Sequence record: MN840485.1
DNA: 45,917 nucleotides
Source: Escherichia phage 2725-N35
Direction: 5' to 3' (one strand)
Shown here in pieces: positions 1-45,917 of the stretch. The number at the start of each line of letters is the position of its first letter. Position 1 is the stretch's first letter. The notes below the pieces were generated by a model, which did not search any database, was not told where the DNA came from, and was given only the letters and a program-made list of their open reading frames with translations. The translations under genes were made by a program, and so were the position numbers.

Positions 1-983
1 CATCTTTAGCTAGGGCTAACTTCGAAAGAGTAATCTCCATCCATTACATCAATGAGGATGTAACCATCTTCTGTGATGACCAACTCATATTCGTAACCAG
101 TTTTGCGTGATTCGTAGAGAATTTTCCAGTGTAGATAGTAGCCATTTTATTTCTCTCTTTGTGTTTCGTTTCGATGGAGTAACTATACCCCATCTTTTAA
201 AATCGCCTTTAGCAATTCGTGCTATTTTGAAATCATTTCTTTGAATGCTGCAAGAAAACCCTCACGTCCGTAGGCGACTGCCGAGAAACCGCCTGATTCC
301 ATTACACTTTTCAGGAATGCCTTCTGTTCTTCGCTGACTGGACTTGCTTGAGTTTTGCCAGCCCTCTTTAGCTCTATAGCTCCGAAAGGATACTTACCTC
401 GAAGTGATTCAGGAATAAGAAACATACAGTCTGATACGCCTTTTAGAAGCCCCTTAGCCTGGTCTTTTCTTGCTTGACCAATGGTTTTCTTTCCCTCATT
501 CACGCAATGGAAAAATACCATATCTGGGTAGTTATACTTAACCCAATCAGAGCAAAAGATTTGTTCGTCATCCTCTTTAGGGCATGACTTAACCGGACCA
601 GGGTAAAACTCAATGTAATCTTCTTTATCTGTAATCTTCATAATAATTCTCCAAAATTCTTAAACGCTATCACGTCCTTTCCTTTTGCATTCCGGCGATG
701 CGTAACCTGAACTGGCGCACGGAACTTATCTACGTTAGTCATAATCATTCTGGCATTTTTAAGCCTGCCAATTCGCGCCGCTTCCGTGCGATTCTCAATA
801 TGAGCTAAGCAAAAGTTCTTCCAGAGCACACTGCAAACTCGATGGTCTGATTCTGGATTAAAGAACTCCCAAGCGTTAAATCTCTCTCCGTTATGAGCCA
901 TTATATTGTACTTAACTACAATGCCTGTCTGATTCTTACTTAACCCAACTTGAAAATCATAAACACGAAGGTAATCACCACGA
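1..983. repeat. Terminal direct repeat, copy A (matches ~44935..45917); contains the 3' end of the helicase gene, the VRR-NUC gene, one promoter element and the 5' part of a small gene
   Basis: Window start and end are collinear and near-identical; ORF-track proteins at 222..641 and 45156..45575 are identical. Two 2-bp indels between copies: 'gtagaga' at ~115 vs 'gtaga' in copy B, and 'ctttag' at ~5 vs 'ctttgtag' in copy B. Confidence 0.9.
222..641 (-). CDS. VRR-NUC-like (PD-(D/E)XK superfamily) nuclease
   Basis: 139 aa with 'FHCVNEG...', 'GAIELKRAGK' and an E/K-containing core typical of VRR-NUC; start overlaps the helicase stop (ATGA). Confidence 0.6.
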   Translation of the reverse strand: MKITDKEDYIEFYPGPVKSCPKEDDEQIFCSDWVKYNYPDMVFFHCVNEGKKTIGQARKDQAKGLLKGVSDCMFLIPESLRGKYPFGAIELKRAGKTQASPVSEEQKAFLKSVMESGGFSAVAYGREGFLAAFKEMISK

Positions 984-2632
984 CGATACATTTTGCCAGT
1001 CAGGTTAGCATTTGGGTCTTTAAGCATCTCGCCGCATTCCCTGCAAACCTTTGCTGCTATGTCATTGCGAGCGCCACAACCCTTTTTAATTACCGATTTA
1101 GTTTGCGCGTCGGTAATGTCTTCGCAAATTGTGAACTGAAAGAAGTGATCGCACCTAACGCCATCAATCTTATTGCTACAGCGACGAGCGAATGGGGAAT
1201 TTTCATATCCACATTGCGGACACTGACGAACCTCATCGCCACCTTTTCTTGAGGATTTAAACTTCTCAGCCTGAATCTCTTCAATAATTGGGTCAAAGTA
1301 AAGCTCAGCCATATCATCAAGTGCGCCAGCAAAATCCAGCACAAGGTGATCTTCTTTATGAAAACCAGCATCAATATGAGATCTCTTAAGTTTGCGCATC
1401 CCCCTACCAAGAAGCTGAATCATAAGCGTTAGGCTGCCAATCTTGCGTAGTATGACGCTAGTATCCCACAGCGGCTGGTTTACGCCCGTAGTAAGACAAC
1501 CAATCTGGAATATTATTTTGTACTTACCTGTCTGGCAATCAGCTAGAATCTCCCTGCGCTTCCTCTCTCCCGTAGAGTCTGTGATGATGGCGTAAGGGTA
1601 TCCATCTGGTAGTGCCGCAGCAGCCTCATCACAATGGAGTTTGCCAGCGCATGTTACCAATGCAGCGTTACGAGTCTCGAGTATTTTCACAACAAAACCC
1701 ATTATCTTTTGGGTCATTGATTGGTTGTCGTGAATCTTTGCAGCCATTGCATCCATTTCTTTCTTGCTGAAGTCTTTAACGCCATCGCTTCCGTCTGGCG
1801 CAAACTCACTAAGGTCATAACCCAGGTCACCAACTTCACCATAAACAGTAGGAACAACGAAGCCCAAATCAACCAGATAATTTGTTGGCACCTGAATCAC
1901 TGTTTTGCGCCAGAATCCACGGATGTTTGGGTTGCTAACGACGATATGATCGTTGTTACGATACGGGCTGCCAGTAAGACCGAATATACGAAGCTCACGC
2001 CCGTACTTCTCACGACAACGACGTTTCATCTCGGTGATAATTAGCGTGTACTGCGCACGACCAGTACCAAGCAATCCTGTGTTTACGCCATCCTTAAAAA
2101 CCATATCGCCTTTCTTTGTGCTCATTTGCTCAAATGTTTCTTCATTCTCTTCAGCCTCCACGATATCCATGTGATCGACCATGTGACACTCATCTATAGC
2201 GATAACTGCCGGAACATAGTCACCAAGCCCCTTAAACAAGCCGTTGGCTGCCGTACCCTCACTGGCCACTATAGTTGGGTGGTAAACTGATTTGACGTTA
2301 AGGCCAGCGCAATAGACGCTATTACGTATGCCGAAATTACGAAGCTCTTCTGAGTTCTGGCTGATAATCTCTGACTGGCGAGAGAGAACCATATAGGGAA
2401 GCCCAAGCTGCTCCATGCGCTTACCAATCATGGCAAGAATGATTGTCTTACCCGCAGATACTGAAAGGTCTGCGATAAATGGTGCCTCGTACTTGCCAAT
2501 AGCCTTTCCGATTGCATCAAATGTCACGCACTGGAATTCGTAAGGGGTTATCTCTCCAAACTGATAGTCTTTCTGAATCTGTTTGATTCTTTCTTTATCG
2601 AAATTTGCAACCAGCTTCTCGATAGGCAACAT
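638..2632 (-). CDS. SF2 DNA helicase with C-terminal Cys4 zinc ribbon
   Basis: 664 aa; Walker A-like 'SVSAGKT', DExH-like 'IDECH', and C-terminal CPQCG...C..C / CRECG cysteine pairs. Confidence 0.8.
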   Translation of the reverse strand: MLPIEKLVANFDKERIKQIQKDYQFGEITPYEFQCVTFDAIGKAIGKYEAPFIADLSVSAGKTIILAMIGKRMEQLGLPYMVLSRQSEIISQNSEELRNFGIRNSVYCAGLNVKSVYHPTIVASEGTAANGLFKGLGDYVPAVIAIDECHMVDHMDIVEAEENEETFEQMSTKKGDMVFKDGVNTGLLGTGRAQYTLIITEMKRRCREKYGRELRIFGLTGSPYRNNDHIVVSNPNIRGFWRKTVIQVPTNYLVDLGFVVPTVYGEVGDLGYDLSEFAPDGSDGVKDFSKKEMDAMAAKIHDNQSMTQKIMGFVVKILETRNAALVTCAGKLHCDEAAAALPDGYPYAIITDSTGERKRREILADCQTGKYKIIFQIGCLTTGVNQPLWDTSVILRKIGSLTLMIQLLGRGMRKLKRSHIDAGFHKEDHLVLDFAGALDDMAELYFDPIIEEIQAEKFKSSRKGGDEVRQCPQCGYENSPFARRCSNKIDGVRCDHFFQFTICEDITDAQTKSVIKKGCGARNDIAAKVCRECGEMLKDPNANLTGKMYRRGDYLRVYDFQVGLSKNQTGIVVKYNIMAHNGERFNAWEFFNPESDHRVCSVLWKNFCLAHIENRTEAARIGRLKNARMIMTNVDKFRAPVQVTHRRNAKGKDVIAFKNFGELL

Positions 2633-3213: not shown

Positions 3214-3268
3214 TAAACAATGGCACTTTGCATTATGTATAGTGCCTTTATTGTTTATGGAGGTAATT

Positions 3269-4195
3269 ATGAGTCACAATGATAAGAACGAAGTGATAGC
3301 CAAGATGAAAGGGATGTGGAGTGAGTTCTACTCATCGCATCTTGGATGGACAAAGGAGAATCTCAGCAAGAAACATGGTCCGTGCCCTTACTGCTTTGGC
3401 AAGGATAGGTTTCGCTTCACTGATGAGTTAGGTCAAGAAAAGGGAAATGGCGCAGCAATATGCAACCAGTGTGGAAATGATTCTGGTGTTGGTTGGGTAA
3501 TGAAGTGTTCTGGAATGAGTTATAGTGAAACAATAGATACGCTTGGTGATTGGCTGAATCTCGTTCCAGTAGAGGTTATATCAAAAGCAAACAAAAGAGC
3601 TTCAAGAACATCACCATACAAAATGGGCGCTCAGATTGATCACGAAAGATGCTTAGAGATAATGGAAAGGACGGAAAGAGTAGAATCAACTCCTCTCAGT
3701 ACATACGAGGGTATCTATAGCGAGTTCGGTTTTGATGTTGGCAGGACGAAATCAGGTGAATTAATCCACGCAGTTCCGTGCTTTATGGCTTATAGCGACG
3801 GTATATCAGAAGAAATGTGTAATGTAATGTTTATCAATGAAGAGGGAGATGTTAGTTATGCTGCAAAAGATTATACTCGCCAGTCTATTTCTGTTATTGG
3901 TTCCCTTAAGGATGATGAGTACGCTTATCTGGTCGATAATCTCATTGACGGCTATCATGTTCACATTGCTACTGGCAACCGCTGCGTGCTTGTTTGCCAC
4001 TCCAGTTACAACATGGAAATGGTTGCTTACGCGCTTAGAAACTACAAGTTACGCATCGCTTGTACTCGCAGCGATTTTGATTTACTCGCCGTTGCTGACG
4101 ATCGCAATCTTGATGTTGTAATGCCAAATAATGATAACCACTTCAAATCAGGAATAAGAAAGCGAATATACAAGGCGAGCGAATTACTAGACTAA
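3269..4195 (+). CDS. DNA primase (zinc-finger type), putative
   Basis: 'CPYCFGKDRF...CNQCGN' zinc-binding motif; sits next to the helicase; start moved to the ATG preceded by GGAGG (track ORF begins at GTG 3242). Confidence 0.55.
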   Translation: MSHNDKNEVIAKMKGMWSEFYSSHLGWTKENLSKKHGPCPYCFGKDRFRFTDELGQEKGNGAAICNQCGNDSGVGWVMKCSGMSYSETIDTLGDWLNLVPVEVISKANKRASRTSPYKMGAQIDHERCLEIMERTERVESTPLSTYEGIYSEFGFDVGRTKSGELIHAVPCFMAYSDGISEEMCNVMFINEEGDVSYAAKDYTRQSISVIGSLKDDEYAYLVDNLIDGYHVHIATGNRCVLVCHSSYNMEMVAYALRNYKLRIACTRSDFDLLAVADDRNLDVVMPNNDNHFKSGIRKRIYKASELLD

Positions 4196-4282: not shown

Positions 4283-6817
4283 ATGGCAATTTATGACTCA
4301 GGAACAGCTTCTCTAGCAGCAAGTGGTGAGGTGACTGGCGTCGGGACAACATGGAAAGCACCTCTTACACTGATTCGTGTAGGTGCAACCATTGTATTTA
4401 AAACTGAACCAGTACAGATTTACACCATCTCAGAAATTATCAGCGATACGCAGATTAATGTTTACAACCCTAACTCCGAAACTGTTCCTGCTGGAACTGG
4501 TTACGCTATCCTTGCGCATGATGGAATTACCGTTCAGGGATTGGCTCAGGATGTAGCAGAGACTTTGCGTTACTACCAGTCTAAGGAGACATCCATCGAA
4601 GGATTGCTGCAATTTATTGGTCAAGACACTTTCGACTGGCCTCGCTTCGAGCAACTTGCAAATCAATCAATCACTGGAGCTGCGGAGGCGCTTGCTAGTC
4701 AGGTTACTGCCGCAGAGAGTGCTTCTACTGCTGTTAGCGCAAGAGACGCAACAACATCAGCGAGAGATGCTACTATTGAGGCAATTAATAGTGCTGGTGA
4801 TGCCAGCACGCTGGTTACTCTTGCTAATATTGGTATTGGTACATCATCACAGCCGCAGATAAGTGCGATTGACTGGCAGACGTATGATTTCAAGTCAATG
4901 TCTAGCTTCACAACGACGCTGCAGTCGATGAGTAACTTGCCTGCGGGGTTGAATTTTGCAACCGGAAACCCATACCTTTTTGTTACAGTTCTTTCATCAA
5001 GGTCTGTCGCAGGGACTGTATCGGCAAAGGTTCAAGTTTCAACAAGGGCCGATAACGACAACAACACAAGAGTTTACGACGTTTACGTAAATGGGAACGT
5101 CGGGTCTAGGGTTTTTTCTGTAAGAGAGAATCTTAGCCTTGTTTCAAACTCAACAACACCCGACGGAGGTGTAACTGCGGATAGAATCAGAAGCAGACTT
5201 GATATTTACTCAAAGAGTGAGACTGATGGGGTTGTAGATGCTCTTAAAAACTTCAAGCTTAATAATGTTTCATCAGTAGTTAGAAGTGTGGAATCAAAAC
5301 TTGGTGACTTTGTTAACGTCATGGATTTTGGTGCTACAAACAATGGTACTTTAGTTCCTCTTTCATCTAAATTTTCGACAATTGAGGATGCGCGGTTTGT
5401 TTATCCATTTGCATCAAACCTTAACGAGTCACTTGACGCAGTTGCGCTTCAGGCGGCGGTTAATACTGGCAAAACGGTATACATACCAAAAGGATTTATG
5501 TTTATTAACAGGACTGTAAGGATTGGCAACAGCACGAGAATTATTGGTGAGGGGACAAGCCAAATAAACAGGGCGCAAACATTTATATCAGTTGATGGAA
5601 ACATAAACCTGTTTGCCTTGGTTCAGGGTGGTGCTGAAAACATAAGAATGTATCAAGTATTTATTGAAGGACTTTACATTTTTTATAACCCAGGAACTAC
5701 ACCGACCGTAGCATCAGGGAATGATCAAAAGATAGCATTCAACTTTGTTTCTAATGTTGGTTCTGCCACAGGGCTAGAAAATTCATGTATCAAAGATTGC
5801 ACAGTTCATGGAGCGTGGGGTTGCTACCTTGATACTACTGGAACGTATCAAACAAAGCTGCAAAACGTATGGGCAAGGAACTGTAGAAACGGATTCATTA
5901 AAGCCACAGGAACTACAATTCTTATGGAAACATGCTACGCATCTGGCTGCGTTTCTCCTTTTGAATTTGGTTCAGTAATGAGTGTGACAATGATTAACTG
6001 CGCAATGGATGCCAGTAATATATCATCAACATCAGGTTCTTATGGTGGGGCTGGAATTAACTTCATCAACAGCCATAGTGTAAACATACTAGGGATGGAC
6101 GTCGAAGGTAACATTATTGACACCAACGGTTCTCAGGATTGCTGCCTTATTAGGTTTAATAACTCAAATGGCAGGATTTCTGGACTAACGTCATGGAAAA
6201 ACGAGGTTAGAACAACTGGAGGTGGTTCTGGTGGTGTGGTTTCATATATCAAGGCCTCTGGAACGTCTCACGTCATTATTGACTCGTCTGAGGATGATAT
6301 TAATGATAGCGGATTGGTTTACACTGGAACTGGTGGATATCCAGTAACAATTTACGCGGCAGATTCGGCGTCAAGGATTGATATTCTCAGCGGTAGGTTC
6401 CAGTCAGCTAAAGGGGGCTCCCCTTCGATATCGGTTGTTAGTCAGGGCAATGTGAACTGGTTTACTGAGCCTATGGGTGGTTCTATTGCTGGTGGTTATA
6501 AGCAGACATACTCATCAGAAGGATTGAGGACTAATGGTGTTTATACGGATAAAGGTTCAAAGGTGGTACAGGCAAGCGTTCCAACTGGGCTATTTGAATT
6601 ACCAAACTCACCAGGCTTGTACAAGGTTTGTACCTGGGTGGCTAATGCTGGAACAAACTATAGCGTCATAGCTGACGTTCTATTTGATGGAGCCACATCA
6701 TCAATTACAGTCACTAAGACGGCAGCATTTACAACACTGGATGTTAGTTCAAGGACTGTCAGTATAACTGCACGGGGTGCAGCCACTTACAAATGGACTT
6801 ACACTAAAATAGGTTAA
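4283..6817 (+). CDS. Tail fibre/tailspike protein with predicted right-handed beta-helix (possible depolymerase) domain
   Basis: 845 aa; N-terminus 'MAIYDSGTASLAASGEVTGVGTTWKAPLTLIRVGATIVFK' as in T1/T5-type fibre anchors; central region rich in N/G/T/S beta-helix-like repeats. Confidence 0.65.
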   Translation: MAIYDSGTASLAASGEVTGVGTTWKAPLTLIRVGATIVFKTEPVQIYTISEIISDTQINVYNPNSETVPAGTGYAILAHDGITVQGLAQDVAETLRYYQSKETSIEGLLQFIGQDTFDWPRFEQLANQSITGAAEALASQVTAAESASTAVSARDATTSARDATIEAINSAGDASTLVTLANIGIGTSSQPQISAIDWQTYDFKSMSSFTTTLQSMSNLPAGLNFATGNPYLFVTVLSSRSVAGTVSAKVQVSTRADNDNNTRVYDVYVNGNVGSRVFSVRENLSLVSNSTTPDGGVTADRIRSRLDIYSKSETDGVVDALKNFKLNNVSSVVRSVESKLGDFVNVMDFGATNNGTLVPLSSKFSTIEDARFVYPFASNLNESLDAVALQAAVNTGKTVYIPKGFMFINRTVRIGNSTRIIGEGTSQINRAQTFISVDGNINLFALVQGGAENIRMYQVFIEGLYIFYNPGTTPTVASGNDQKIAFNFVSNVGSATGLENSCIKDCTVHGAWGCYLDTTGTYQTKLQNVWARNCRNGFIKATGTTILMETCYASGCVSPFEFGSVMSVTMINCAMDASNISSTSGSYGGAGINFINSHSVNILGMDVEGNIIDTNGSQDCCLIRFNNSNGRISGLTSWKNEVRTTGGGSGGVVSYIKASGTSHVIIDSSEDDINDSGLVYTGTGGYPVTIYAADSASRIDILSGRFQSAKGGSPSISVVSQGNVNWFTEPMGGSIAGGYKQTYSSEGLRTNGVYTDKGSKVVQASVPTGLFELPNSPGLYKVCTWVANAGTNYSVIADVLFDGATSSITVTKTAAFTTLDVSSRTVSITARGAATYKWTYTKIG

Positions 6818-9480: not shown

Positions 9481-9711
9481 CCAATCGTTGATTCAATTTT
9501 ACGCGTTAATCATTGTAATTCCGTGTAGGTATTGCCGCTAGTTACGTTTCTTGGCATCTCAGCCCAGCTATAGCTCAATGTAACTAGTGTGTATGTCGTG
9601 TATATCATTTATTGCTGAGGGTGCATTGGTATAGCAGCCGCGCAATACTGTATAAATCCACATGATATTAAAATTATAACCGGAACACTCTATAGAAGTG
9701 GTTACATGATA

Positions 9712-9775
9712 TACACAGTAATATATATAATAATAATAATAAGAGTAAAAGGTTGTTATATATAGATATTTTAAT
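9712..9775. repeat. AT-rich element with (TAA)n microsatellite, copy 1 (copy 2 at ~36306..36372)
   Basis: acacagtaatatatataataataataataagagtaaaaggttgttatatatagatatt; ~90% identical to copy 2. Confidence 0.8.
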
Positions 9776-9867
9776 GTAACTAATGCGTAAATTAGCGTAA
9801 CAGAGCGTATATCATTTTCCGCGGATGAGATTGTATACATCGAGTTACATCGGTTACGTGTATGCAA

Positions 9868-28989: not shown

Positions 28990-29045
28990 GTGAAGTAACT
29001 ATACGCCATCCGTGGCTCTAGCGTTTAGCAATTCGTGCTATTTAA
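28990..29045 (-). promoter_or_regulatory. P-box promoter for the 28592..28966 moron
   Basis: AAATAGCACGAATTGCTAAAC, 22 nt, TATAGTTACTTCACACAAAC; the TerL stop codon (TAG) lies within the motif. Confidence 0.6.
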
Positions 29046-31114: not shown

Positions 31115-31182
31115 ATCGCCACCTCGTTAGTTTGTTGGGCCCATTATCTCATTGATTGGGCCTCTTCTTTTAACAATAATTG

Positions 31183-33429: not shown

Positions 33430-33495
33430 CTCATTGTTTCGATGGGGTAACTATAACAAATTACCCCAATTCTGCTTTAGTAATTCGTGCTACTT
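33430..33495 (-). promoter_or_regulatory. P-box promoter
   Basis: AGTAGCACGAATTACTAAAG, 22 nt, TATAGTTACCCCATCGAAACAATGAGAG. Confidence 0.6.
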
Positions 33496-34409: not shown

Positions 34410-34475
34410 TCATGTGGTTGATGCTGGGGATTATACCAGTCAGTATGAATCCCCTTTTATCAATTCGTGCGATCT
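34410..34475 (-). promoter_or_regulatory. P-box promoter (variant upstream box) with perfect TATAAT
   Basis: GATCGCACGAATTGATAAAAG, 22 nt, TATAAT; long (~130 nt) leader. Confidence 0.55.
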
Positions 34476-34944: not shown

Positions 34945-35005
34945 GATGTGGTAATCATATCCGATTACCCGATACATTGTTTAGCAATTCGTGCTATTTA
35001 GCACT
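34945..35005 (-). promoter_or_regulatory. P-box promoter
   Basis: AAATAGCACGAATTGCTAAAC, 22 nt, TATGATTACCACATCGACAACAAAGAGG. Confidence 0.6.
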
Positions 35006-36110: not shown

Positions 36111-36305
36111 TATTTTATCATGGATACGCTTTTTGCCTCCAGAGGCCCCTCCATTGCTGGTTGTAAATGTGCCGTATCCGATGTGTACAGATTTTTGAAG
36201 CCATTCCCTATATATGTGCCTTTTATTCCTACAATGCCATCCATTTCTGACAGGTGTCAGAATATCTGCGCGGAACATATCAATAATCTCACCAATTACC
36301 GGTAT

Positions 36306-36372
36306 ACACAGTATACATATATATAATAATAATAATAATAATAAAGTAAAAGGTTGATATATATAGATATTA
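36306..36372. repeat. AT-rich element with (TAA)n microsatellite, copy 2
   Basis: acacagtatacatatatataataataataataataaagtaaaaggttgatatatatagatatt; matches copy 1 at ~9712..9775. Confidence 0.8.
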
Positions 36373-36479
36373 TATTGTATATCGTGTGTATATATCGCGT
36401 AAAAACGTAGGTTAGTGGTCACTAACTTTTGTGACGACACTGAGTATACGGAGGATACGCGTATATCCGTGAGGCTCCC

Positions 36480-37704: not shown

Positions 37705-37866
37705 TGCTATTACCATCTGAGATAAATTATTTCGATCTTGAGGTCGTAAGTGCCTATAGCGGAAAGGGCTGGCCTTGTGGAGATTGGTTCCGAGAGGACT
37801 TGCTAGAGAGTCACGAGATTATGCTTAAGGCGATAGAAAAAGCACGAAATAGCACGAATTGCTAAA
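37705..37866 (+). CDS. Hypothetical small protein (~53 aa)
   Basis: ORF MLLPSEINYFDLEV...; stop codon is the TAA of the next P-box (TTGCTAA); coordinates approximate. Confidence 0.35.
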
Positions 37867-38722: not shown

Positions 38723-40306
38723 ATGTTTGATTTCAACGAAGATAAACTATCTGTTGAGCAGGTTATGGCAATTGCTGCTGCGGACAATCTTCCACCTCTG
38801 CGCGTCGCTATTAATGCTAATGGCTATCGCCAGTCTCAATCATTCTGGAAAGCGCCAGTCGAGATTGATGCAGCTAATGACAAGTATCCCGTAATCTCAC
38901 TCGGTAATGACATTGATGTTGTTGGGAAGCTGTCATCTAACATCGCTCGCTCAGTTCAGTTTCCTGAGTCTTCAGCATACATGCACTTCCTTGGGTGTAT
39001 TTCAGCCGCCATGCTTGGTCGATTCACTGTTGAGTACCACGGAACTCAGCAGCCAACATCTCTTTACGTAGTAACCAGTCAGCCACCATCCACAGGTAAA
39101 TCAGCAATTAACTCGCTTTCTATTGCGCCAATGATTGCTGAGACTGAGCGGCTTAATGAAGTGCGAAAGCGTGAGCGTAAAAAGATTATGGCAAAGCTGT
39201 CTGCATTATCCAAAGAGATGAAGCAGGAAAAGTCACCATCAGAGATGGCGTCTCTCTTTGAGGAGAAAGAGGATTTAGAGGAGAAGCTGGAAAAGATGTG
39301 CGATATCGTATTTCCAGTGTCAGATACCACTCCGGAAGGTCTTGCACGAATAAACAACCGCCAGGGTAACTTTGCTGTAATCTCGGATGAAGCAACTAGC
39401 GTCAACTCACTTCTTGGCATGACCTATGGTGACGGCTCTAAGAAAACGAACAGCGAGCTCGTACTCAAGGCGTGGGATGCTGGTAACGTGTCCATTGCGC
39501 GTGCGAACGCAGAAAACAACATGAGCTTCGTTGCTATGGGATGCATCTCTGTAATTGCGCAAGATGAGACAATAAACGCAATCATGAATGCTGGTGCTCG
39601 TGGTATTGGTGTGTCGGAACGTTTTCTACTTGTGCGTGAAAAATCATTCCTTGGCGAGCGTGTATTCGTCGATGAGAATGGAGACTCAACGTATGAGCCA
39701 ATTGATGGTAGCCTGAAGGCTGACTACTTCCGCCTGGTTCACGAAATCATGAGTGAGCAAGATGTTAAGTTGACGGTAAGCAACTCAGCGATGAAATATC
39801 TCAACCGAGCACGTCAGGAAATGGAGCCGCACCTTGCAGACGGCGGTAAGTATTCACACACAATGTTGCGCGGTGCTCTTGGTAAGTTCGATAAGCAGGC
39901 TATCAAGATTGCAGCGGTTCTTCACACGGTGCGTAACTGGTTCAACCCTAGCGGTGGGAGTCCACAGAAATCAAGAGAGATTGAGCTTGATACCATGCAA
40001 GAAGCCGTCATTATGTTTCAGGAACTTAGCAAGACTTATCTTTCATCCGCTAACGCCGCTGGTCACGCTGGCGACAATGCTGAGATGAACAAGTTGATTG
40101 ATATACTAATCAAGCAAGGCAAAAACGGAAAGGGCGTAGTTGGTATTCGCTCGTTGTATGAAGCTGCTCGCAAGGTTAAGCCATTCGAAGCTCAGGCTGG
40201 AGTGATGACGAAGATTAAAGATCACTTGCTGCCAATGCTTGATGAGAAAAACTACACGTGCCTGATTGGTGATAAGGTTTACATTAATCCGCGATTGCTG
40301 GGGTGA
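38723..40306 (+). CDS. P-loop NTPase of unknown function (Walker A/B)
   Basis: 527 aa; Walker A 'SQPPSTGKS', Walker B-like 'FAVISDEA'; a coiled-coil-like insert lies between them. Confidence 0.6.
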   Translation: MFDFNEDKLSVEQVMAIAAADNLPPLRVAINANGYRQSQSFWKAPVEIDAANDKYPVISLGNDIDVVGKLSSNIARSVQFPESSAYMHFLGCISAAMLGRFTVEYHGTQQPTSLYVVTSQPPSTGKSAINSLSIAPMIAETERLNEVRKRERKKIMAKLSALSKEMKQEKSPSEMASLFEEKEDLEEKLEKMCDIVFPVSDTTPEGLARINNRQGNFAVISDEATSVNSLLGMTYGDGSKKTNSELVLKAWDAGNVSIARANAENNMSFVAMGCISVIAQDETINAIMNAGARGIGVSERFLLVREKSFLGERVFVDENGDSTYEPIDGSLKADYFRLVHEIMSEQDVKLTVSNSAMKYLNRARQEMEPHLADGGKYSHTMLRGALGKFDKQAIKIAAVLHTVRNWFNPSGGSPQKSREIELDTMQEAVIMFQELSKTYLSSANAAGHAGDNAEMNKLIDILIKQGKNGKGVVGIRSLYEAARKVKPFEAQAGVMTKIKDHLLPMLDEKNYTCLIGDKVYINPRLLG

Positions 40307-40308
40307 CC

Positions 40309-40395
40309 TATGATTGAATCGATACTATTGATAATACTTGGTTTTGTTGTAACAACTTCGATGCTTCTATTTGTTTTGGCAGTGCTCGGGAGTTA
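40309..40395 (+). CDS. Tiny hydrophobic peptide (~28 aa), possible membrane peptide
   Basis: MIESILLIILGFVVTTSMLLFVLAVLGS; tightly packed between neighbours; coordinates approximate. Confidence 0.3.
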
Positions 40396-40398
40396 ATT

Positions 40399-40734
40399 AT
40401 GTTCATCCTTGACTTGTACCGGTTCTGCGAATCTTACAGCTATTTCACGCGCCAGCATTTGGCGCGATTCATCTACCAACACAAGGACTCCCAGAGATTC
40501 AGCAAGTCGGCAGGCTTATCGCATAGAGAGTTTTGCAGCGCTGCTTCAAAGGAGTTCTGCGCAAAGATGCTTAGTGCAGGTTACATTGATGGTAAGTGCG
40601 GTGAGTTTTCTAGCAATGGTAGCTTGAAGAGGCCATTTGAGTTTAACTTCGAGGCGCTTAACGGGTATCAAAGCAAGTACATAAAAGAGATGATGAATAT
40701 AGGAACAATGACTGACGACGAGTTATTTAGCTAA
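40399..40734 (+). CDS. Hypothetical protein
   Basis: 111 aa, last gene of the rightward operon. Confidence 0.5.
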   Translation: MFILDLYRFCESYSYFTRQHLARFIYQHKDSQRFSKSAGLSHREFCSAASKEFCAKMLSAGYIDGKCGEFSSNGSLKRPFEFNFEALNGYQSKYIKEMMNIGTMTDDELFS

Positions 40735-40736
40735 AA

Positions 40737-40765
40737 ATATAGCCTCCATTAGGAGGCTTTTTTAC
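40737..40765 (+). terminator. Rho-independent terminator ending the rightward operon
   Basis: GCCTCC-atta-GGAGGC then T6. Confidence 0.8.
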
Positions 40766-41138
40766 GTCTTAAGATTGATGCCATGAGAATTAAAACCAGC
40801 AGGCCCATAGCTCCTGTTCCAACCCACGGAAGCGCTGATGATTCGTTATTGGTAATCTCAATCTTTTCGGCTGTGATTGTAGAGGCCTTAATCGAGTTGT
40901 CAGCAGTCTTTTTCCCGCTAGAGCTATCCAGTGATCCGACCTTAGAATCTTTAACCGTGGCTTCACTGGAGCTGCTTGAGTCAACCTTGTTCGTTAACCC
41001 AACTCCAACCTTGTTATTCTCTGCACCAGCCTGCGCACTAATTTCCGGCTTACTGCCAATCAATCCGGTCAGTGCATCAGTCGCTGAACATCCAGATAAA
41101 GCTAAGCACATTACTAACGCTGCAATCCGCTTAAGCAT
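40749..41138 (-). CDS. Unimolecular spanin (u-spanin), putative
   Basis: N-terminal lipoprotein signal 'CLALSGC', Ser-rich periplasmic region, C-terminal transmembrane helix; immediately after the endolysin. Confidence 0.65.
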   Translation of the reverse strand: MLKRIAALVMCLALSGCSATDALTGLIGSKPEISAQAGAENNKVGVGLTNKVDSSSSSEATVKDSKVGSLDSSSGKKTADNSIKASTITAEKIEITNNESSALPWVGTGAMGLLVLILMASILRRKKAS

Positions 41139-41599
41139 AACTTAATCTCCTCATTCCTGCGGTTTACCAAGCCCTTAACCACAACCTTCTTGCCATTAAC
41201 GGTAGCTTTATTCCAAAGACTCAAAGACTTACAACCTTGCTCCACTTTACCCTGGTTGATTAGCCTTACAGCCGTAGACTTCCTCATCGCTGAGCCGCCA
41301 ACATTATAGCTAAAGCTGATTAACGCTGCCCTTGTCTGCGGTGCGATTGTGTAGGTAACTGCATCCTGAACATACTTAGCATGAATCTGGATGTGCTTCT
41401 CCAGTAAGTTCCGGCACTCACTATTGCTGTAGGTCTTACCCCAAACAACGTCAGGGCCAGTAACGCCAGAGCAAACAGTAGGGATTCCAGCAATGTCCAT
41501 GTAAGGCTTGTTTTCCACACCCTCTACGAGCTCAATAATCGGTGCTGCGATGTATATTGCCGCAGCCGTAGCCGCGCTAATTAGCAGCTTCTGCTTCAT
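41114..41599 (-). CDS. SAR endolysin (phage-21 R-like lysozyme)
   Basis: N-terminal signal-anchor-release helix; 'GKTYSNSECRNLL' and 'TRAALISFSYNVGGSAMRKS...INQGK' closely resemble P21 R. Confidence 0.85.
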   Translation of the reverse strand: MKQKLLISAATAAAIYIAAPIIELVEGVENKPYMDIAGIPTVCSGVTGPDVVWGKTYSNSECRNLLEKHIQIHAKYVQDAVTYTIAPQTRAALISFSYNVGGSAMRKSTAVRLINQGKVEQGCKSLSLWNKATVNGKKVVVKGLVNRRNEEIKLCLSGLQR

Positions 41600-41842
41600 T
41601 TACTTACTCCTTATATTGATTGCTGTTTTTAAGTCTCCTGATTCAAGAGCGCGCCGAATCGCCTGGCTATCCTTAAACTTCCAGTAAGCACCCCACGCAC
41701 CAAAAATGATTAAAGCGATAAGGCTGATTATTGCTATAGTCATCTGACCAGTTGCCGCTCCAGTTACCGCTGCCCCTCCAGTTGACGCCGTAGCGGCGTT
41801 GATTACTTCCCTCATGTGATCCTCCATTTGTCTATCTGTCAA
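41600..41842 (-). CDS. Holin (pinholin-like), with possible dual start
   Basis: Three in-frame ATGs (MTDRQ-MEDH-MREV), SD GGAGGA before the third; G/A-rich weak helix followed by a hydrophobic helix. Confidence 0.65.
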   Translation of the reverse strand: MTDRQMEDHMREVINAATASTGGAAVTGAATGQMTIAIISLIALIIFGAWGAYWKFKDSQAIRRALESGDLKTAINIRSK

Positions 41843-41944
41843 TGTTTAAGTTAGTAATAGAATGATACAGCAACCCTGCTCGGAAAAGAAGCATAAAAAG
41901 GGGAGCCAAAAGGCCCCCACTTGTAAAGCTATGTTTTAGATGCG

Positions 41945-42120
41945 CTAGTCTGCGATAATAAATTCAACCAGCGAACCATCAATCGGCGCTAAAATCCACG
42001 TCATATCGTCACCGTAAATCTTGTAATATCCATCCCCTTGATACTCTGCATTGTACGGCTGGTTAACTGTAAATGGCAGCGTTTTGGAGTTGTTTTTGGT
42101 GCAATAAATCATTTTAGTCA
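41945..42120 (-). CDS. Hypothetical small protein (~55-58 aa) upstream of the holin
   Basis: ORF MTKMIYCTKNN... following the P-box promoter; coordinates approximate. Confidence 0.3.
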
Positions 42121-42154
42121 TTTTGTGTTTCCTTGTTTAGTTCATCTCGTTTCT

Positions 42155-42215
42155 ATGTGGTAATTATGCCGCATTTCTACGGCATGCGTTAGGCAAAAAG
42201 TGCTATTAACTAAAC
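42155..42215 (-). promoter_or_regulatory. P-box promoter for the lysis cassette
   Basis: TAATAGCACTTTTTGCCTAAC, 22 nt, CATAATTACCACATAGAAACGAG. Confidence 0.55.
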
Positions 42216-43336
42216 ATTTCCGGGCGGCAAGTAAATCGTCCAATCTCACCAAACTCAGGACTATAAATTATCACCGAAGCCTGTCGGTAAGAGCGATAAC
42301 CTCCGTTAGCACTGTACGCATCTTTCGCTCCAAGCTGGCCGTGTGATTCATCAATACCCAGATTTCCTTCCGTAATAGTTTGATGGTGATAGTGGCCTGA
42401 ATGGGTGTAAACATACTCTGATTCACCAAATGCTTTGCGATGGTCACGAGCCAGTGCTGATAGTCGGGTATCAGGCTTTTTGAGTTCGTGCCCATGGCAG
42501 TAACCAAGCAGTGTCTTCCCAAATTGCGTTACGTGAAGCGCAGCGGGGGACGTATCAACATTAACTCGAGGCTCATCCATATAGAAAGCTGCCATTGCAG
42601 CACGAAGCCAAATCATACCTGAGAGATCGTGGTTACCTGGAATAATCTGAACCTCAACCTCGGCGTGCTTATCAAGCATACGGCTAATTGCTCGACGTGT
42701 CGATCGCACTGCTACGTAAACAAGTTTGTGATAACGGCTATCTTGATCAAGAACATGACGACTGGTTGGTGTTACCGCTTCCATTCCGTCAGAGTGAAGG
42801 AAGTCACCCCCAATCAGCAATACAGCTTTCTTGGAGTTGGGGGCCTTTGCAACCGCGTAATCAAAGTAATCATTAAGAACTCTCTCAGCGATTTCAGTAC
42901 TATAGTTCTCACCACACTCAGCATGATGAGCCATTGCTCCAATGTGGAGGTCGAACACGGGGTAAAGGCTTAAAGTATCTTCCCATAAACCAACCCTTAA
43001 AGCTTTAGCTTTCTCACGCGGCAACTCATCAGTTAGGGCCTGAATTGCCTGAAGCATCATCTCTTCTTGCTTCTCCTTGTCGATATCTGATTTAACCCAC
43101 TGTTGCTTAATCTCGCCATCAGCACCAATTAAGCTGGATACGCCTTTAACTGCATAGCCCTGAGGGATTAAGTTGCTTACATCGCGACCATGCCCTTCGC
43201 CTTGTTTAGCTAATTTACTGCGACGCAATTCAACGTTGCGAATGTTCATTCCGTACTTCTCTGCGATTGCCTTGTTGGTCATGCCATTTGCTAACTCTTC
43301 GCGCAATTGTTCGTTGGTGATTTTTGCGGTTGCCAT
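42206..43336 (-). CDS. HTH domain fused to a calcineurin-like metallophosphoesterase
   Basis: N-terminal 'LANGMTNKAIAEKYGMNIRNVELRRSKL' (LuxR/sigma-r4-like HTH); phosphoesterase motifs DLH, GGDFLH, GNHD, HGH, HSGHYHH. Confidence 0.7.
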   Translation of the reverse strand: MATAKITNEQLREELANGMTNKAIAEKYGMNIRNVELRRSKLAKQGEGHGRDVSNLIPQGYAVKGVSSLIGADGEIKQQWVKSDIDKEKQEEMMLQAIQALTDELPREKAKALRVGLWEDTLSLYPVFDLHIGAMAHHAECGENYSTEIAERVLNDYFDYAVAKAPNSKKAVLLIGGDFLHSDGMEAVTPTSRHVLDQDSRYHKLVYVAVRSTRRAISRMLDKHAEVEVQIIPGNHDLSGMIWLRAAMAAFYMDEPRVNVDTSPAALHVTQFGKTLLGYCHGHELKKPDTRLSALARDHRKAFGESEYVYTHSGHYHHQTITEGNLGIDESHGQLGAKDAYSANGGYRSYRQASVIIYSPEFGEIGRFTCRPEMFS

Positions 43337-43419
43337 TATAGAAGTTCCTTAATTCATTACGATAAAGTATAAGATGGTAAAGCTAAACAGTGGTAACGAT
43401 GCTACTAGTATTAGGCTCG

Positions 43420-43671
43420 TCATTCAACTTCTTTCAACCAGTAGTCTATCACTTCCGCACTAATTGCTAATTTCTGATCAAGGTCAGTCATGCAAAGGTT
43501 TCCGCATGCTGGGGAGTAGTAAATCTGTACCCACTTTCCTTCTTTAGTTTTTGCATTCACATCCACATAGTCAGGAGGAAACCAGTCAGAGATAGGTATC
43601 GCTCTAAACTTCGCTCCACTTTGCCCATATACTAAATCGTAATGCTCTGGCTGAAAATCTAAACCCAACAT
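43420..43671 (-). CDS. Hypothetical protein
   Basis: 83 aa ORF. Confidence 0.45.
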   Translation of the reverse strand: MLGLDFQPEHYDLVYGQSGAKFRAIPISDWFPPDYVDVNAKTKEGKWVQIYYSPACGNLCMTDLDQKLAISAEVIDYWLKEVE

Positions 43672-44882: not shown

Positions 44883-45079
44883 TCTGATACCTCATCAAAT
44901 TTTTCGCCAAATTCGTTTTTAACAGTTTCTAAATCATCTTTGTAGCTAGGGCTAACTTCGAAAGAGTAATCTCCATCCATTACATCAATGAGGATGTAAC
45001 CATCTTCTGTGATGACCAACTCATATTCGTAACCAGTTTTGCGTGATTCGTAGAATTTTCCAGTGTAGATAGTAGCCAT
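44879..45079 (-). CDS. Hypothetical small protein
   Basis: Start set at ATG (MATIYTGKFY...) 30 nt downstream of the P-box -10; track ORF extends to 45127. Confidence 0.45.
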   Translation of the reverse strand: MATIYTGKFYESRKTGYEYELVITEDGYILIDVMDGDYSFEVSPSYKDDLETVKNEFGEKFDEVSE

Positions 45080-45116
45080 TTTATTTCTCTCTTTGTGTTT
45101 CGTTTCGATGGAGTAA

Positions 45117-45162
45117 CTATACCCCATCTTTTAAAATCGCCTTTAGCAATTCGTGCTATTTT
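45117..45162 (-). promoter_or_regulatory. P-box promoter (archetype; duplicated at ~182..228)
   Basis: AAAATAGCACGAATTGCTAAAGG, 22 nt, TATAGTTACTCCATCGAAACGAAAC; VRR-NUC stop TAG lies inside the box. Confidence 0.6.
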
Positions 45163-45575
45163 GAAATCATTTCTTTGAATGCTGCAAGAAAACCCTCACG
45201 TCCGTAGGCGACTGCCGAGAAACCGCCTGATTCCATTACACTTTTCAGGAATGCCTTCTGTTCTTCGCTGACTGGACTTGCTTGAGTTTTGCCAGCCCTC
45301 TTTAGCTCTATAGCTCCGAAAGGATACTTACCTCGAAGTGATTCAGGAATAAGAAACATACAGTCTGATACGCCTTTTAGAAGCCCCTTAGCCTGGTCTT
45401 TTCTTGCTTGACCAATGGTTTTCTTTCCCTCATTCACGCAATGGAAAAATACCATATCTGGGTAGTTATACTTAACCCAATCAGAGCAAAAGATTTGTTC
45501 GTCATCCTCTTTAGGGCATGACTTAACCGGACCAGGGTAAAACTCAATGTAATCTTCTTTATCTGTAATCTTCAT
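45156..45575 (-). CDS. VRR-NUC-like nuclease (duplicate of 222..641 within the terminal repeat)
   Basis: Identical 139-aa translation. Confidence 0.6.
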   Translation of the reverse strand: MKITDKEDYIEFYPGPVKSCPKEDDEQIFCSDWVKYNYPDMVFFHCVNEGKKTIGQARKDQAKGLLKGVSDCMFLIPESLRGKYPFGAIELKRAGKTQASPVSEEQKAFLKSVMESGGFSAVAYGREGFLAAFKEMISK

Positions 45576-45917
45576 AATAATTCTCCAAAATTCTTAAACG
45601 CTATCACGTCCTTTCCTTTTGCATTCCGGCGATGCGTAACCTGAACTGGCGCACGGAACTTATCTACGTTAGTCATAATCATTCTGGCATTTTTAAGCCT
45701 GCCAATTCGCGCCGCTTCCGTGCGATTCTCAATATGAGCTAAGCAAAAGTTCTTCCAGAGCACACTGCAAACTCGATGGTCTGATTCTGGATTAAAGAAC
45801 TCCCAAGCGTTAAATCTCTCTCCGTTATGAGCCATTATATTGTACTTAACTACAATGCCTGTCTGATTCTTACTTAACCCAACTTGAAAATCATAAACAC
45901 GAAGGTAATCACCACGA
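45572..45917 (-). CDS. Helicase gene, 3' portion (duplicate, truncated by the window end)
   Basis: Translation identical to the C-terminus of the 638..2632 product. Confidence 0.6.
   Translation of the reverse strand, partial: RGDYLRVYDFQVGLSKNQTGIVVKYNIMAHNGERFNAWEFFNPESDHRVCSVLWKNFCLAHIENRTEAARIGRLKNARMIMTNVDKFRAPVQVTHRRNAKGKDVIAFKNFGELL

Follow-up and report, generated by a model that had tools for sequence, protein, structure and literature searches.

A T1/Rtp-type lysis cassette behind a conserved terminator in Escherichia phage 2725-N35

Three consecutive minus-strand ORFs in the ORF list of Escherichia phage 2725-N35 (41842-40749) make up a lysis cassette that we consider very probably to be the conserved Drexlerviridae module of the T1/Rtp type, encoding a holin, a SAR endolysin and a unimolecular spanin (u-spanin) and working by the mechanism given below. 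The window, which is the whole stretch of 45,917 nucleotides analysed here (MN840485.1), is a complete, Rtp/Guelphvirus-like Drexlerviridae genome (~44.9 kb). What was established directly comprises homology, sequence motifs, the arrangement of the genes, the conservation of start codons, and a terminator that is present and keeps its position. A preliminary description of this DNA had proposed a cassette with a multi-start pinholin, a SAR endolysin and a u-spanin driven by an early-type promoter element. The three-gene core, homologous to T1 gp13, gp12 and gp11, stands; the multi-start holin and the early-promoter drive do not.

Gene content and relatives of the cassette

The cassette and the signals at its two ends are as follows.

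41820..41825, minus strand: Shine-Dalgarno sequence GGAGGA of the holin gene, read from the sequence
41600..41815, minus strand: holin of 71 aa, T1 gp13 family (phrog_2877, 8e-37; 56% identity to T1 gp13)
41114..41599, minus strand: SAR endolysin of 161 aa, a GH24 lysozyme of the R21 type (Pfam and structure matches)
40749..41138, minus strand: unimolecular spanin of 129 aa, T1 gp11 family (phrog_1804, 1.3e-48)
40741..40758, no strand assigned: bidirectional intrinsic terminator at the end of both the cassette and the convergent gene 40399-40734 (from its fold)

The order holin, phage-21-type SAR endolysin, T1-type u-spanin has been published for the T1 family (PMC6139136; PMC11447400; PMC13164509), and Kongari et al. 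(PMC6139136) place the T1 gp11 family in cassettes with a pinholin and a SAR endolysin. The pinholin/SAR-endolysin/u-spanin arrangement of T1-like phages is therefore already known, and near-identical or identical proteins have been annotated. Holin, endolysin and u-spanin are annotated at matching places in 83 relatives, and the cassette region shares 92% nucleotide identity with Veterinaerplatzvirus T145P1 and CEB_EC3a. The cassettes of the Braunvirinae phages Rtp, CEB_EC3a, SU57 and JeanPiccard (88-92% nucleotide identity) differ from it by point differences only, have the same terminator and intergenic sequence and carry genes annotated as holin, endolysin and u-spanin. The T1 cassette (gp13 holin, gp12 endolysin, gp11 spanin; Summer 2007; Kongari 2018, PMC6139136) has the same gene order, with protein identities of 56% (gp13), 44% (gp12) and 37% (gp11). 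The preliminary description had called the layout one known from T1, which is correct for the gene order. In contrast, the spanin and endolysin genes overlap by 1 nt in T1, whereas the overlap here is exactly 25 nt (41138-40749 against 41599-41114), as first described.

The endolysin matches the Pfam family Phage_lysozyme (PF00959) at 7e-35, and its best matches among solved structures are RrrD (4zpu, 3.6e-28) and R21 of phage 21 (3hde, 1.7e-27). It is a clear homologue of R21 (PDB 3HDE/3HDF), with a SAR-type N-terminus and an E-D-T triad, and its first assignment to the phage-21-type SAR lysozymes was upheld. The catalytic motif, E26-8-D35-5-T41, aligns with E35, D44 and T50 of R21, and the same E-8-D-5-T motif is found at the aligned position of T1 gp12. 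The alignment to R21 begins at residue 12, partway into the N-terminal hydrophobic segment. This N-terminus reads MKQK-LLISAATAAAIYIAAPII-E, with the SAR segment at residues 5-22 (nt 41587-41534); the 19-residue window L5-E23 contains 47% G/A/S/T and has a summed Hessa-scale value of +3.6. Pro20 follows the hydrophobic N-terminus, after the only plausible AxA site, and a proline at such a place speaks against cleavage by signal peptidase. The protein thus has what is expected of a SAR endolysin, a lysozyme triad and, before the catalytic Glu, a predicted, weakly hydrophobic N-terminal anchor. Because the SAR segment contains no Cys, regulation would be of the R21 type and not of the P1 Lyz type. 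The start codon of the endolysin gene directly abuts the holin stop codon (TAAATG).

The spanin gene is preceded by a Shine-Dalgarno sequence, GAGGAG, 8 nt upstream. Its product is 37% identical to T1 gp11 (2e-23) and 95% identical to a 129-aa protein of Rtp, which is entered in SpaninDB (as RTP) as a 129-aa u-spanin; the RefSeq record of Rtp starts the spanin at an internal Met, while SpaninDB keeps the 129-aa form. An n-region, MLKR (charge +2), leads to the lipobox LSGC (nt 41099-41088), with Cys17 followed by Ser at +2 and Ala at +3, and this lipobox is identical to that of T1 gp11. Toward the C-terminus, a TMD at about residues 103-123 (nt 40832-40770) is followed by the basic tail RRKKAS. 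Residues 105-123 sum to -0.67 kcal/mol on the Hessa scale, with a Kyte-Doolittle mean of 2.1; the corresponding TMD of T1 gp11 is more hydrophobic. There is no periplasmic Cys (none after Cys17). Lipobox and TM prediction thus recovered both the lipoprotein signal and the C-terminal helix of the preliminary description, and a lipobox without Asp at +2, a C-terminal TMD with a basic tail, homology and a place as the last cassette gene are together those of the T1 gp11 family. For the periplasmic domain of the Rtp spanin, Jpred gave 30% beta-strand and 6% helix (Table S2, PMC6139136). Complementation of a lambda RzRz1 defect, lipoylation and the span across two membranes have been shown for T1 gp11 alone (PMC6139136). 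Phage 21 differs from the phage analysed here in having a two-component spanin (Rz/Rz1) in place of a u-spanin.

Comparison with Rtp, IME253, JulesPiccard and T1 supported no embedded Rz1-like gene inside the endolysin or spanin gene; the alternative-frame ORFs of 66 to 67 aa found there are not conserved in these four phages and were rejected as genes. At the end of the cassette, the stem of the bidirectional terminator holds the last spanin codons and the stop codon (z = -3.3 on the minus strand, -2.9 on the plus strand), and this terminator is annotated in CEB_EC3a and SU57.

Start codon and membrane segments of the holin

The holin family is one of 71-aa proteins. The phrog_2877 alignment spans residues 10-80 of the 80-aa ORF, and the identity to T1 gp13, itself 71 aa, extends from end to end. 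Homologues were matched in 792 phage records, in 651 of these over 80% or more of the 71-aa form, and the annotated GenBank holin of CEB_EC3a is 100% identical to the protein here. A Pfam search returned no holin family at E <= 0.1, just a chance-level match to TatA.

The 80-aa ORF can be opened in frame at TTG 41842, ATG 41827 or ATG 41815 (80, 75 and 71 aa), from which the preliminary description had derived a pinholin/antiholin pair. The window and the phages T145P1, CEB_EC3a and SU57 have all three starts in frame, and two starts have been proposed for TLS-type holins (M1RDFLLM7). The locus might on these grounds be a multi-start holin/antiholin locus, with the cassette transcribed from an early-type element at 42206-42189, but we regard this combination as very improbable. 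Rtp, IME253, JeanPiccard and JulesPiccard, four of the eight close relatives, have AAA-GGTGGATCACATG instead, and in these phages the upstream ATG is absent and the TTG is out of frame. Among seven more distant genomes, none has an upstream in-frame ATG and three are without any upstream in-frame start codon. Neither TTG 41842 nor ATG 41827 is preceded by a Shine-Dalgarno sequence; the latter (41827-41825) overlaps the Shine-Dalgarno sequence of the holin and forms part of it, and this sequence is kept as GGAGGA or GGTGGA in all Braunvirinae relatives. The antiholins lambda S107 and S21 71 are made antiholins by extra positive charge. The residues that extend the 75-aa form, MEDH, are instead acidic and carry a net negative charge. 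Conservation and a Shine-Dalgarno sequence were therefore found for ATG 41815 alone, and we gave up the antiholin pair. As judged from these comparisons, the three-start appearance is an artefact of ORF extension. A leader structure like the lambda sdi as a control of start choice was also ruled out, since the holin leader folds no more stably than its shuffles (z = +0.39) and an Rfam search of 40300-43500 gave zero matches at E <= 1.

Of the two helices first assigned to the holin, one is a strong TMD at about residues 25-45, the sole segment to pass the hydrophobicity threshold. The other is just a weakly hydrophobic, Ala/Gly/Thr-rich N-terminal stretch (residues 4-22; 79% G/A/S/T), and the C-terminus is basic. 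The Hessa-scale insertion energy of residues 4-22, summed by hand, is about +6.7 kcal/mol; script values are +6.4 for TMD1 of S21 and +5.6 kcal/mol for T1 gp13. The protein resembles S21 68 of phage 21 in its small size, its G/A/S/T-rich first segment and its SAR endolysin partner, the partner expected of a pinholin. It differs from S21 68 in belonging to a separate family (phrog_2877, T1 gp13) and in having no dual-start motif and no loop. To our knowledge, neither T1 gp13 nor T1 gp12 has been characterised biochemically to date.

These properties leave room for a holin with a single TMD (N-out/C-in) that is not a pinholin, whose Ala/Gly/Thr-rich N-terminus would always be periplasmic and which would release the endolysin by depolarisation or through larger holes. 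Residues 25-45 alone exceed the threshold, the GenBank record of T1 describes its holin as a 'single transmembrane domain', and only G23-Q24 separate the two segments, essentially without an inter-helix loop. The absence of any Pfam match additionally means that by sequence the holin is unrelated to S21. Set against this are the N-terminal segment, whose composition and insertion energy match the experimentally SAR-like TMD1 of S21 68, and the literature, in which the Young laboratory (PMC6139136) and the TLS and KanT1 papers class such holins as pinholins, though by prediction. We consider the single-TMD topology the less probable of the two, if a serious candidate, and favor the pinholin; with one strongly hydrophobic segment and essentially no TMD1-TMD2 loop, the pinholin assignment stays provisional.

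Terminator, candidate promoter and the upstream SH3 gene

Five further features lie between the holin gene and the end of the exonuclease gene upstream.

41862..41890, minus strand: candidate weak sigma-70 promoter TTCTTT-17-TATCAT
41895..41918, minus strand: intrinsic terminator between the SH3 and holin genes (stem GGGGGCC/GGCUCCC, UUUU loop, CUUUUU; from its fold and z)
41945..42121, minus strand: DUF7244/standalone SH3 gene, 58 aa, homologue of T1 gp14 (PF23896, 1.3e-29; phrog_4788)
42163..42168, minus strand: -10-like hexamer CATAAT, exactly 20 nt after the repeat element
42189..42206, minus strand: Drexlerviridae repeat ATAGCACnnnTTGnTAAA, here ATAGCACTTTTTGCCTAA (2 mismatches)

The terminator at 41918-41895 folds at -18.5 kcal/mol (z = -3.27), a stability reached by 0 of 200 shuffles, and the CEB_EC3a record carries an ARNold terminator ahead of its holin. 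T1 has the same arrangement, with a terminator-like hairpin (-16.9 kcal/mol, z = -2.87) between the SH3 gene (gp14, preceded in T1 by an HNH gene) and the holin gene. A hairpin with a T-run is found 71-84 nt upstream of the holin ATG in all eight diverse Drexlerviridae compared, with stems that differ in sequence. The terminator accompanies the holin even where there is no SH3 gene, as in KarlJaspers, U136B and tuinn.

Past this terminator, the TATCAT of the candidate promoter lies 27 nt beyond the T-run. On our own approximate PWM the candidate stands at the 99.93rd percentile (top 0.07% of window positions), a score that is not strong evidence by itself; a stock promoter scanner made no call at 41862..41890. 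Six of the eight genomes have a -10-like hexamer (5/6 or better) 24-29 nt past the T-run, and at the aligned position T1 reads TTGTGT-17-TAAAAT. In front of late gene blocks, terminator/-10 junctions of a similar kind are found. Another sequence, TTGACA-17-TCACAT (41842-41814), scores well on our matrix and was rejected as the holin promoter because its -10 overlaps the start codon, so that transcripts would begin inside the holin gene. TTGACA-17-TCACAT is conserved in Braunvirinae and Tempevirinae.

The repeat at 42206-42189 is an ATAGCAC-type element, listed under families D2 and D6, and overlaps the stop codon of the exonuclease gene. ATAGCACnnnTTGnTAAA occurs in 21 copies in the window (0.52 expected by chance), and the element is conserved among relatives, T1 included. 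The same 21-nt repeat (aaATAGCACnnnTTGnTAAAA) has been described in TLS, where no function was assigned to it and where it stands roughly 76 nt ahead of start codons (PMC11447400). In the copy here, which agrees with the family in consensus and orientation, the start codon that follows 85 nt after its beginning is the ATG of SH3 and not that of the holin. A -10-like hexamer (5/6 or better) is present at offset 20 in 17 of the 21 copies, against a background of 0.004 per position; in this copy, the first bases of CATAAT form the 3' arm of an inverted repeat, ATGCCG-8-CGGCAT (fold z = -3.8). The TTGnTA of the repeat was rejected as a -35 box since nearly all copies have 22 nt between it and the -10, too long a spacer for sigma-70. 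The element-type promoter would in fact serve the SH3 gene, whose Rtp counterpart is annotated as 'similar to gp14 of T1' and which lies 102 nt ahead of the 80-aa ORF and 129 nt ahead of the real start of the holin.

The preliminary description, which gave no strand, had correctly placed the cassette downstream of a repeat-family element, but had overlooked the SH3 gene and the terminator that intervene; element and cassette both lie on the minus strand. None of the eight genomes examined has a copy of the element within 170 nt of the holin. The family also precedes the virion structural protein/portal block and other late-region genes and is therefore not early-specific. With its own gene and then a terminator following the element, the early-type drive first ascribed to it is not supported, and the multi-start, early-element account of the locus, contradicted by the comparative data, appears largely refuted.

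Transcription from this element could matter to lysis in another way, if the SH3/DUF7244 protein, produced along with the cassette, were a fourth lysis component that binds the cell wall and helps the endolysin, and the element promoter became the lysis promoter by read-through. The gene does lie on the same strand just ahead of the holin, and strict synteny beside the lysis module has been reported in 188 of 522 Drexlerviridae (PMC13164509). The same survey makes it missing from most of the family (PMC13164509), a strong terminator separates it from the holin, and that terminator stays with the holin in genomes where the SH3 gene is absent. Additionally, the SH3 protein has no signal sequence or TM segment, so that, in a pinholin system, it would have no way to reach the murein ahead of lysis. 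We think this role unlikely, although less so than the multi-start account. Read-through from the element promoter into the cassette may nevertheless contribute, possibly substantially. A literature search found no transcriptome of any T1-like phage; a PNAS 2026 paper in which the Drexlerviridae are mentioned contains no such data on them.

Proposed lysis pathway and control of its timing

Pinholin behaviour, topology, promoter activity, expression timing and every functional step in the following pathway are proposed from homology to T1 gp11 and R21. The 71-aa holin, made from the single start ATG 41815, would gather in the inner membrane and depolarise it at an allele-specific time; it is probably a pinholin, with a weakly hydrophobic N-terminal segment that would behave like the SAR TMD1 of S21 68. 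The endolysin would be exported by Sec, and its uncleaved N-terminal SAR domain would then keep it in the inner membrane, inactive, until depolarisation freed it, whereupon it would refold like R21 and degrade the murein. The spanin, after lipoylation of Cys17, would go to the outer membrane, with its C-terminal helix remaining in the inner membrane, and once the murein meshwork was gone it would fuse or disrupt both membranes. The holin and endolysin genes are translationally adjacent at TAAATG, and the spanin start lies within the last 25 nt of the endolysin gene. The cassette would be a separate transcription unit, with a terminator directly upstream of the holin and then, probably, a weak, -35-poor sigma-70 promoter, and transcripts from the ATAGCAC module that serves the SH3 gene would enter it only by terminator read-through.

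A more tentative reading, which we consider less probable than not, has two separate parts: that the T1-like lysis cassette is a terminator-gated unit and not a simple extension of an early or middle operon, and that the ATAGCAC modules are a distinct promoter class. The gate may consist of a terminator, conserved in position and divergent in sequence, ~75 nt before the holin, followed by a -10 without a -35, 24-29 nt past the T-run, and junctions of this style also stand before late structural blocks. In the promoter class, the -10 would always follow the element after 20 nt, the element would be centred near -41.5, and hairpins that vary from copy to copy would flank the -10; such a class might need a host or phage factor. 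In lambda, the pR'-tR'-S region has a terminator immediately upstream of the holin that is overcome by Q antitermination. The gated unit may be loosely like pR'-tR'-S, with a putative factor of its own: in both, a short promoter-proximal unit ends at an intrinsic terminator directly before the holin. The likeness is one of analogy only. Unlike in lambda, the short unit codes for a protein (SH3), a -10-like promoter follows the terminator, and no Q-like antiterminator or qut site was identified.

For T1-like phages, the analysis corrects an over-long holin ORF to 71 aa, assigns the neighbouring promoter-like element to a gene other than those of the cassette and points to a terminator immediately upstream of the holin as a family-wide feature. 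That terminator bears on the question of co-expression of the cassette with the SH3 gene, for which a role as 'lysis accessory' has recently been proposed. It also bears on how late and lysis genes are timed in T1-like phages, whose genomes lack genes for an RNA polymerase or sigma factor: in a terminator-gated unit, the dosage of holin, and with it the time of lysis, would depend on read-through or antitermination that is regulated, or else on a weak promoter.

Layout of the lysis cassette

The window is a complete genome of approximately 44.9 kb belonging to the T1-like family Drexlerviridae, subfamily Braunvirinae. Nucleotides 1-983 and 44935-45917 are identical except for two 2-nt indels, and because this 983-nt end repeat is either terminal redundancy or an assembly overlap, the unique genome is ~44.93 kb. 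Elsewhere, two related AT-rich blocks, TACACAGTATA..ATAATAATAATAA..AGTAAAAGGTTG.TATATATAGATATT, lie at 9703-9792 and 36296-36393, ~26.6 kb apart in the same orientation (65-82% identity; repeat families D11 and D18).

Across 40600-42300, identity is 92% with Veterinaerplatzvirus T145P1 and Escherichia phage CEB_EC3a and 87-90% with Rtp, IME253 and JeanPiccard; at least 80% of the region is covered by 83 phage records. The three genes carry the labels holin, endolysin and either Rz-like or unimolecular spanin in these 83 records. All lysis-region features discussed here are on the minus strand:

41842-41600 (-): holin ORF, 80 aa from TTG
41599-41114 (-): endolysin ORF, 161 aa
41138-40749 (-): spanin ORF, 129 aa

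Thus, the cassette exists as the preliminary description had it, with three contiguous ORFs. Endolysin and spanin share exactly 25 nt, and the stop codon of the holin abuts the endolysin start (TAAATG). Three points need correction: where the holin begins, what the 400 nt upstream contain and what the promoter element does.

The endolysin had been likened to phage-21-type SAR lysozymes, and at the sequence level this is borne out. It matches Pfam Phage_lysozyme (7e-35), and its best solved-structure matches are RrrD (4zpu, 3.6e-28) and the phage 21 SAR endolysin R21 (3hde, 1.7e-27), the 3hde alignment beginning at query residue 12, inside the N-terminal hydrophobic region. The catalytic motif E26-8-D35-5-T41 corresponds to R21 E35/D44/T50 and to T1 gp12 from E27 onward, and overall identity to T1 gp12 is 44%. 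The N-terminus, MKQK-LLISAATAAAIYIAAPII, is without Cys and has Pro after its sole AxA-like site, which fits a predicted R21-type SAR anchor that is not cleaved.

The spanin matches phrog_1804 'Rz-like spanin' (1.3e-48) and is 37% identical to T1 gp11 (2e-23) and 95% identical to a 129-aa Rtp protein. In SpaninDB the RTP and ACG-M12 u-spanins are 129 aa, with a periplasmic domain of 86 aa (Jpred 5.8% helix, 30% strand), and T1 gp11 complements lambda RzRz1 (PMC6139136). The lipobox LSGC (Cys17) is the same as that of T1, with Ser at +2 and no further Cys, and the C-terminal TMD is followed by RRKKAS. The T1-type unimolecular layout stands with respect to lipobox, TMD and gp11 homology but not the overlap, which is 1 nt in T1 and whose 25-nt form is specific to the window's lineage. 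Stop-to-stop frames compared with Rtp, IME253, JulesPiccard and T1 contained no conserved embedded ORFs in endolysin or spanin. The Rtp RefSeq record (L004 1433-1795) begins its spanin at an internal Met, an annotation inconsistency which yields 121 aa and loses the signal-peptide n-region.

Start codon and topology of the holin

Three in-frame starts, TTG (41842), ATG (41827) and ATG (41815), are present in the 80-aa ORF and had been read as a multi-start pinholin. The phrog_2877 holin profile (PHROG, 8e-37) covers ORF residues 10-80, and T1 gp13, which is 71 aa, aligns end to end with the window holin at 56% identity. A tblastn search with the 71-aa form returned 792 phage records, 651 with at least 80% query coverage, and the CEB_EC3a holin is 100% identical to it. 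In an alignment of nine genomes, AAATGGAGGATCACATG is read in the window, T145P1, CEB_EC3a and SU57, and AAA-GGTGGATCACATG is read in Rtp, IME253, JeanPiccard and JulesPiccard, where the upstream ATG is absent and a 1-nt deletion places TTG out of frame (stop-to-stop frames agree). The conserved feature is the Shine-Dalgarno (SD) sequence GGAGGA or GGTGGA, 4 nt 5' of ATG 41815, and ATG 41827 is part of this SD. Among seven more distant Drexlerviridae, none has an in-frame ATG upstream of the holin start and three are without any in-frame start codon there. Extension from ATG 41827 would prefix the acidic Met-Glu-Asp-His; the lambda S107 and S21 71 antiholins rely on one extra basic residue. 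Because of the profile span, gp13 length, start and SD conservation and acidic extension, the three starts are an ORF-extension artefact, with upstream starts lost or frameshifted in four close relatives, and the gene is 41815-41600, at the family length of 71 aa. The IME253 record (L006 689-958) is inconsistent in annotating its holin too long, at 89 aa.

Braunvirinae and Tempevirinae conserve a TTGAC(A/T) hexamer, perfect or nearly so, 23-29 nt before the holin ATG (window 41837-41842, minus strand; columns about 380-386 of A1, the alignment of relatives; also KarlJaspers, U136B and tuinn). Because a matching -10 would have to fall on the SD and start codon, the hexamer makes no sensible holin promoter.

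Two helices had also been claimed for the holin, and one is clear: residues 25-45 form a single TMD of strong hydrophobicity, and the C-terminus after it is basic. Only Gly-Gln separates this TMD from residues 4-22 (VINAATASTGGAAVTGAAT), which are 79% Gly/Ala/Ser/Thr. Their Hessa-scale insertion energy is ~+6.7 kcal/mol (summed by hand), and a script gave +6.4 for TMD1 of the phage 21 pinholin S21 68 and +5.6 for T1 gp13. This segment is compatible with, not proof of, a SAR-like TMD1. T1-family holins have been classed as class II pinholins, by prediction only (PMC6139136; PMC11447400; PMC13164509), whereas the T1 GenBank record states 'single transmembrane domain'. A Pfam search of the window holin gave no holin-family match, so the protein is unrelated to S21 in sequence.

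Terminator and candidate promoter upstream of the holin

A hairpin and U-run at 41918-41895 lie between the holin and a 58-aa gene, the SH3 gene. The hairpin has a stability of -18.5 kcal/mol (z = -3.27; 0 of 200 shuffles as stable), and the CEB_EC3a record annotates a terminator here; T1 has a different hairpin plus UUUUU in the same place (-16.9 kcal/mol, z = -2.87). The eight genomes surveyed come from Braunvirinae, Tunavirinae and Tempevirinae and from Klebsiella phages. Each has a hairpin and T-run starting 71-84 nt before the holin ATG; the stems are unrelated in sequence, and the arrangement is the same with SH3 or with exonuclease/phosphoesterase as the preceding gene. In none does the ATAGCAC element (at most 3 mismatches) occur within 170 nt of the holin. 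Because position is kept behind either upstream gene and with no element nearby, the predicted terminator appears to travel with the cassette and insulate it.

Past the T-run, a -10-like hexamer (at least 5/6) follows within 24-29 nt in six of the eight genomes: TATCAT in the window (41867-41862, minus strand) and, in T1, TAAAAT with TTGTGT 17 nt upstream. TTCTTT-17-TATCAT ranks at the 99.93rd percentile of all window positions by our own approximate sigma-70 matrix, which is suggestive and no more. Three junctions in the structural-gene region, ahead of late structural blocks, are built from a strong intrinsic terminator, a -10 or extended -10 within 14-33 nt, then SD and gene, with no recognisable -35 box at any of the three:

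31757-31700 (-): terminator, then TGgTATAAT
25648-25590 (-): terminator, then TGtTATATT
23838-23770 (-): terminator, then TATAAT

Junctions of this kind may serve these phages as late promoters; the stretch ahead of the holin resembles a weaker form of them. We infer that the cassette has a putative weak, -35-poor promoter of its own, possibly plus read-through.

The ATAGCAC module, the SH3 gene and lysis timing

The ATAGCAC element, ATAGCACnnnTTGnTAAA, occurs in 21 copies in the window compared to 0.5 expected, for example:

208-225 (-)
29024-29041 (-)
34980-34997 (-)
37849-37866 (+)
42189-42206 (-)

The element corresponds to a 21-nt direct repeat already reported in TLS, T1 and Rtp, for which the TLS paper gives no function (PMC11447400). 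A -10-like hexamer (at least 5/6; background 0.004 per position) lies exactly 20 nt past the element in 17 of 21 copies and 19-21 nt past it in 20. The ~85-nt module runs element, 20 nt, -10-like hexamer, TAC..CATCGAAACGA... conserved leader, SD and ATG, and T1 copies have the same geometry. TTGnTA within the element was rejected as a -35 box because its distance to the -10 is 22 nt. The element covers roughly -50 to -33, centred near -41.5, where class II activators bind.

Most copies have a copy-specific 5-9 bp inverted repeat bracketing or overlapping the -10 hexamer, such as TGGGGTAA-10-TTACCCCA, GGTAATC-6-GATTACC, ATGCCG-8-CGGCAT and, in T1, AAGGGCATT-6-AATGCCCTT:

33440-33475 (-), window
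34945-34979 (-), window
34420-34455 (-), window
42150-42188 (-), window
3218-3255 (+), window
31130-31168 (-), window
2287-2325, T1 (L003)
3553-3590, T1
4362-4400, T1
4882-4920, T1

Mean folding z-scores for the 40 nt past the element are -1.8 (21 window copies) and -2.8 (23 T1 copies). Stems that vary in sequence while staying paired suggest a possible structural function, either in the DNA or in read-through RNA.

The copy at 42206-42189 is followed by CATAAT (42168-42163) and the 58-aa gene at 42121-41945 (-), a T1 gp14 homologue (Pfam DUF7244, 1.3e-29) that the preliminary description had missed. Other copies of the element stand ahead of an HNH gene that runs into the ORF of the large terminase, a block with virion structural protein and portal, a gene next to that for the major tail protein, and replication genes; the element family is not an 'early-type' marker. 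The proposal that an early-type element drives the cassette is thus not supported, as this copy precedes the SH3 gene, a terminator intervenes and the family also lies before structural genes. The DUF7244 protein was recently described as a standalone SH3 domain adjoining Drexlerviridae lysis modules and proposed as a cell-wall-binding lysis accessory (PMC13164509). The window protein has no signal peptide or TM segment, and the terminator separates its gene from the holin. A cytoplasmic 58-aa SH3 domain would have no obvious pre-lysis route to murein in a pinholin system, so that proposal would face a topological problem.

All components and the overall layout are already published for T1, TLS, KanT1 and Rtp and annotated in GenBank relatives; in these papers (PMC6139136, PMC11447400, PMC13164509) we did not find mention of a terminator immediately before the holin throughout the family, of the separate transcription of SH3 that it implies, or of the fixed geometry of ATAGCAC modules. 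How active the promoters and terminators are, how the holin sits in the membrane and when the genes are expressed are all inferred. Going by homologues, the 71-aa holin would build up and depolarise the inner membrane, freeing the SAR endolysin to degrade murein, and the freed u-spanin would fuse or disrupt the inner and outer membranes. In lysis systems of this kind, holin allele and dosage are the main determinants of timing. Dosage would be held down by the terminator and the weak promoter, so the worry over an early promoter driving lysis would largely dissolve.
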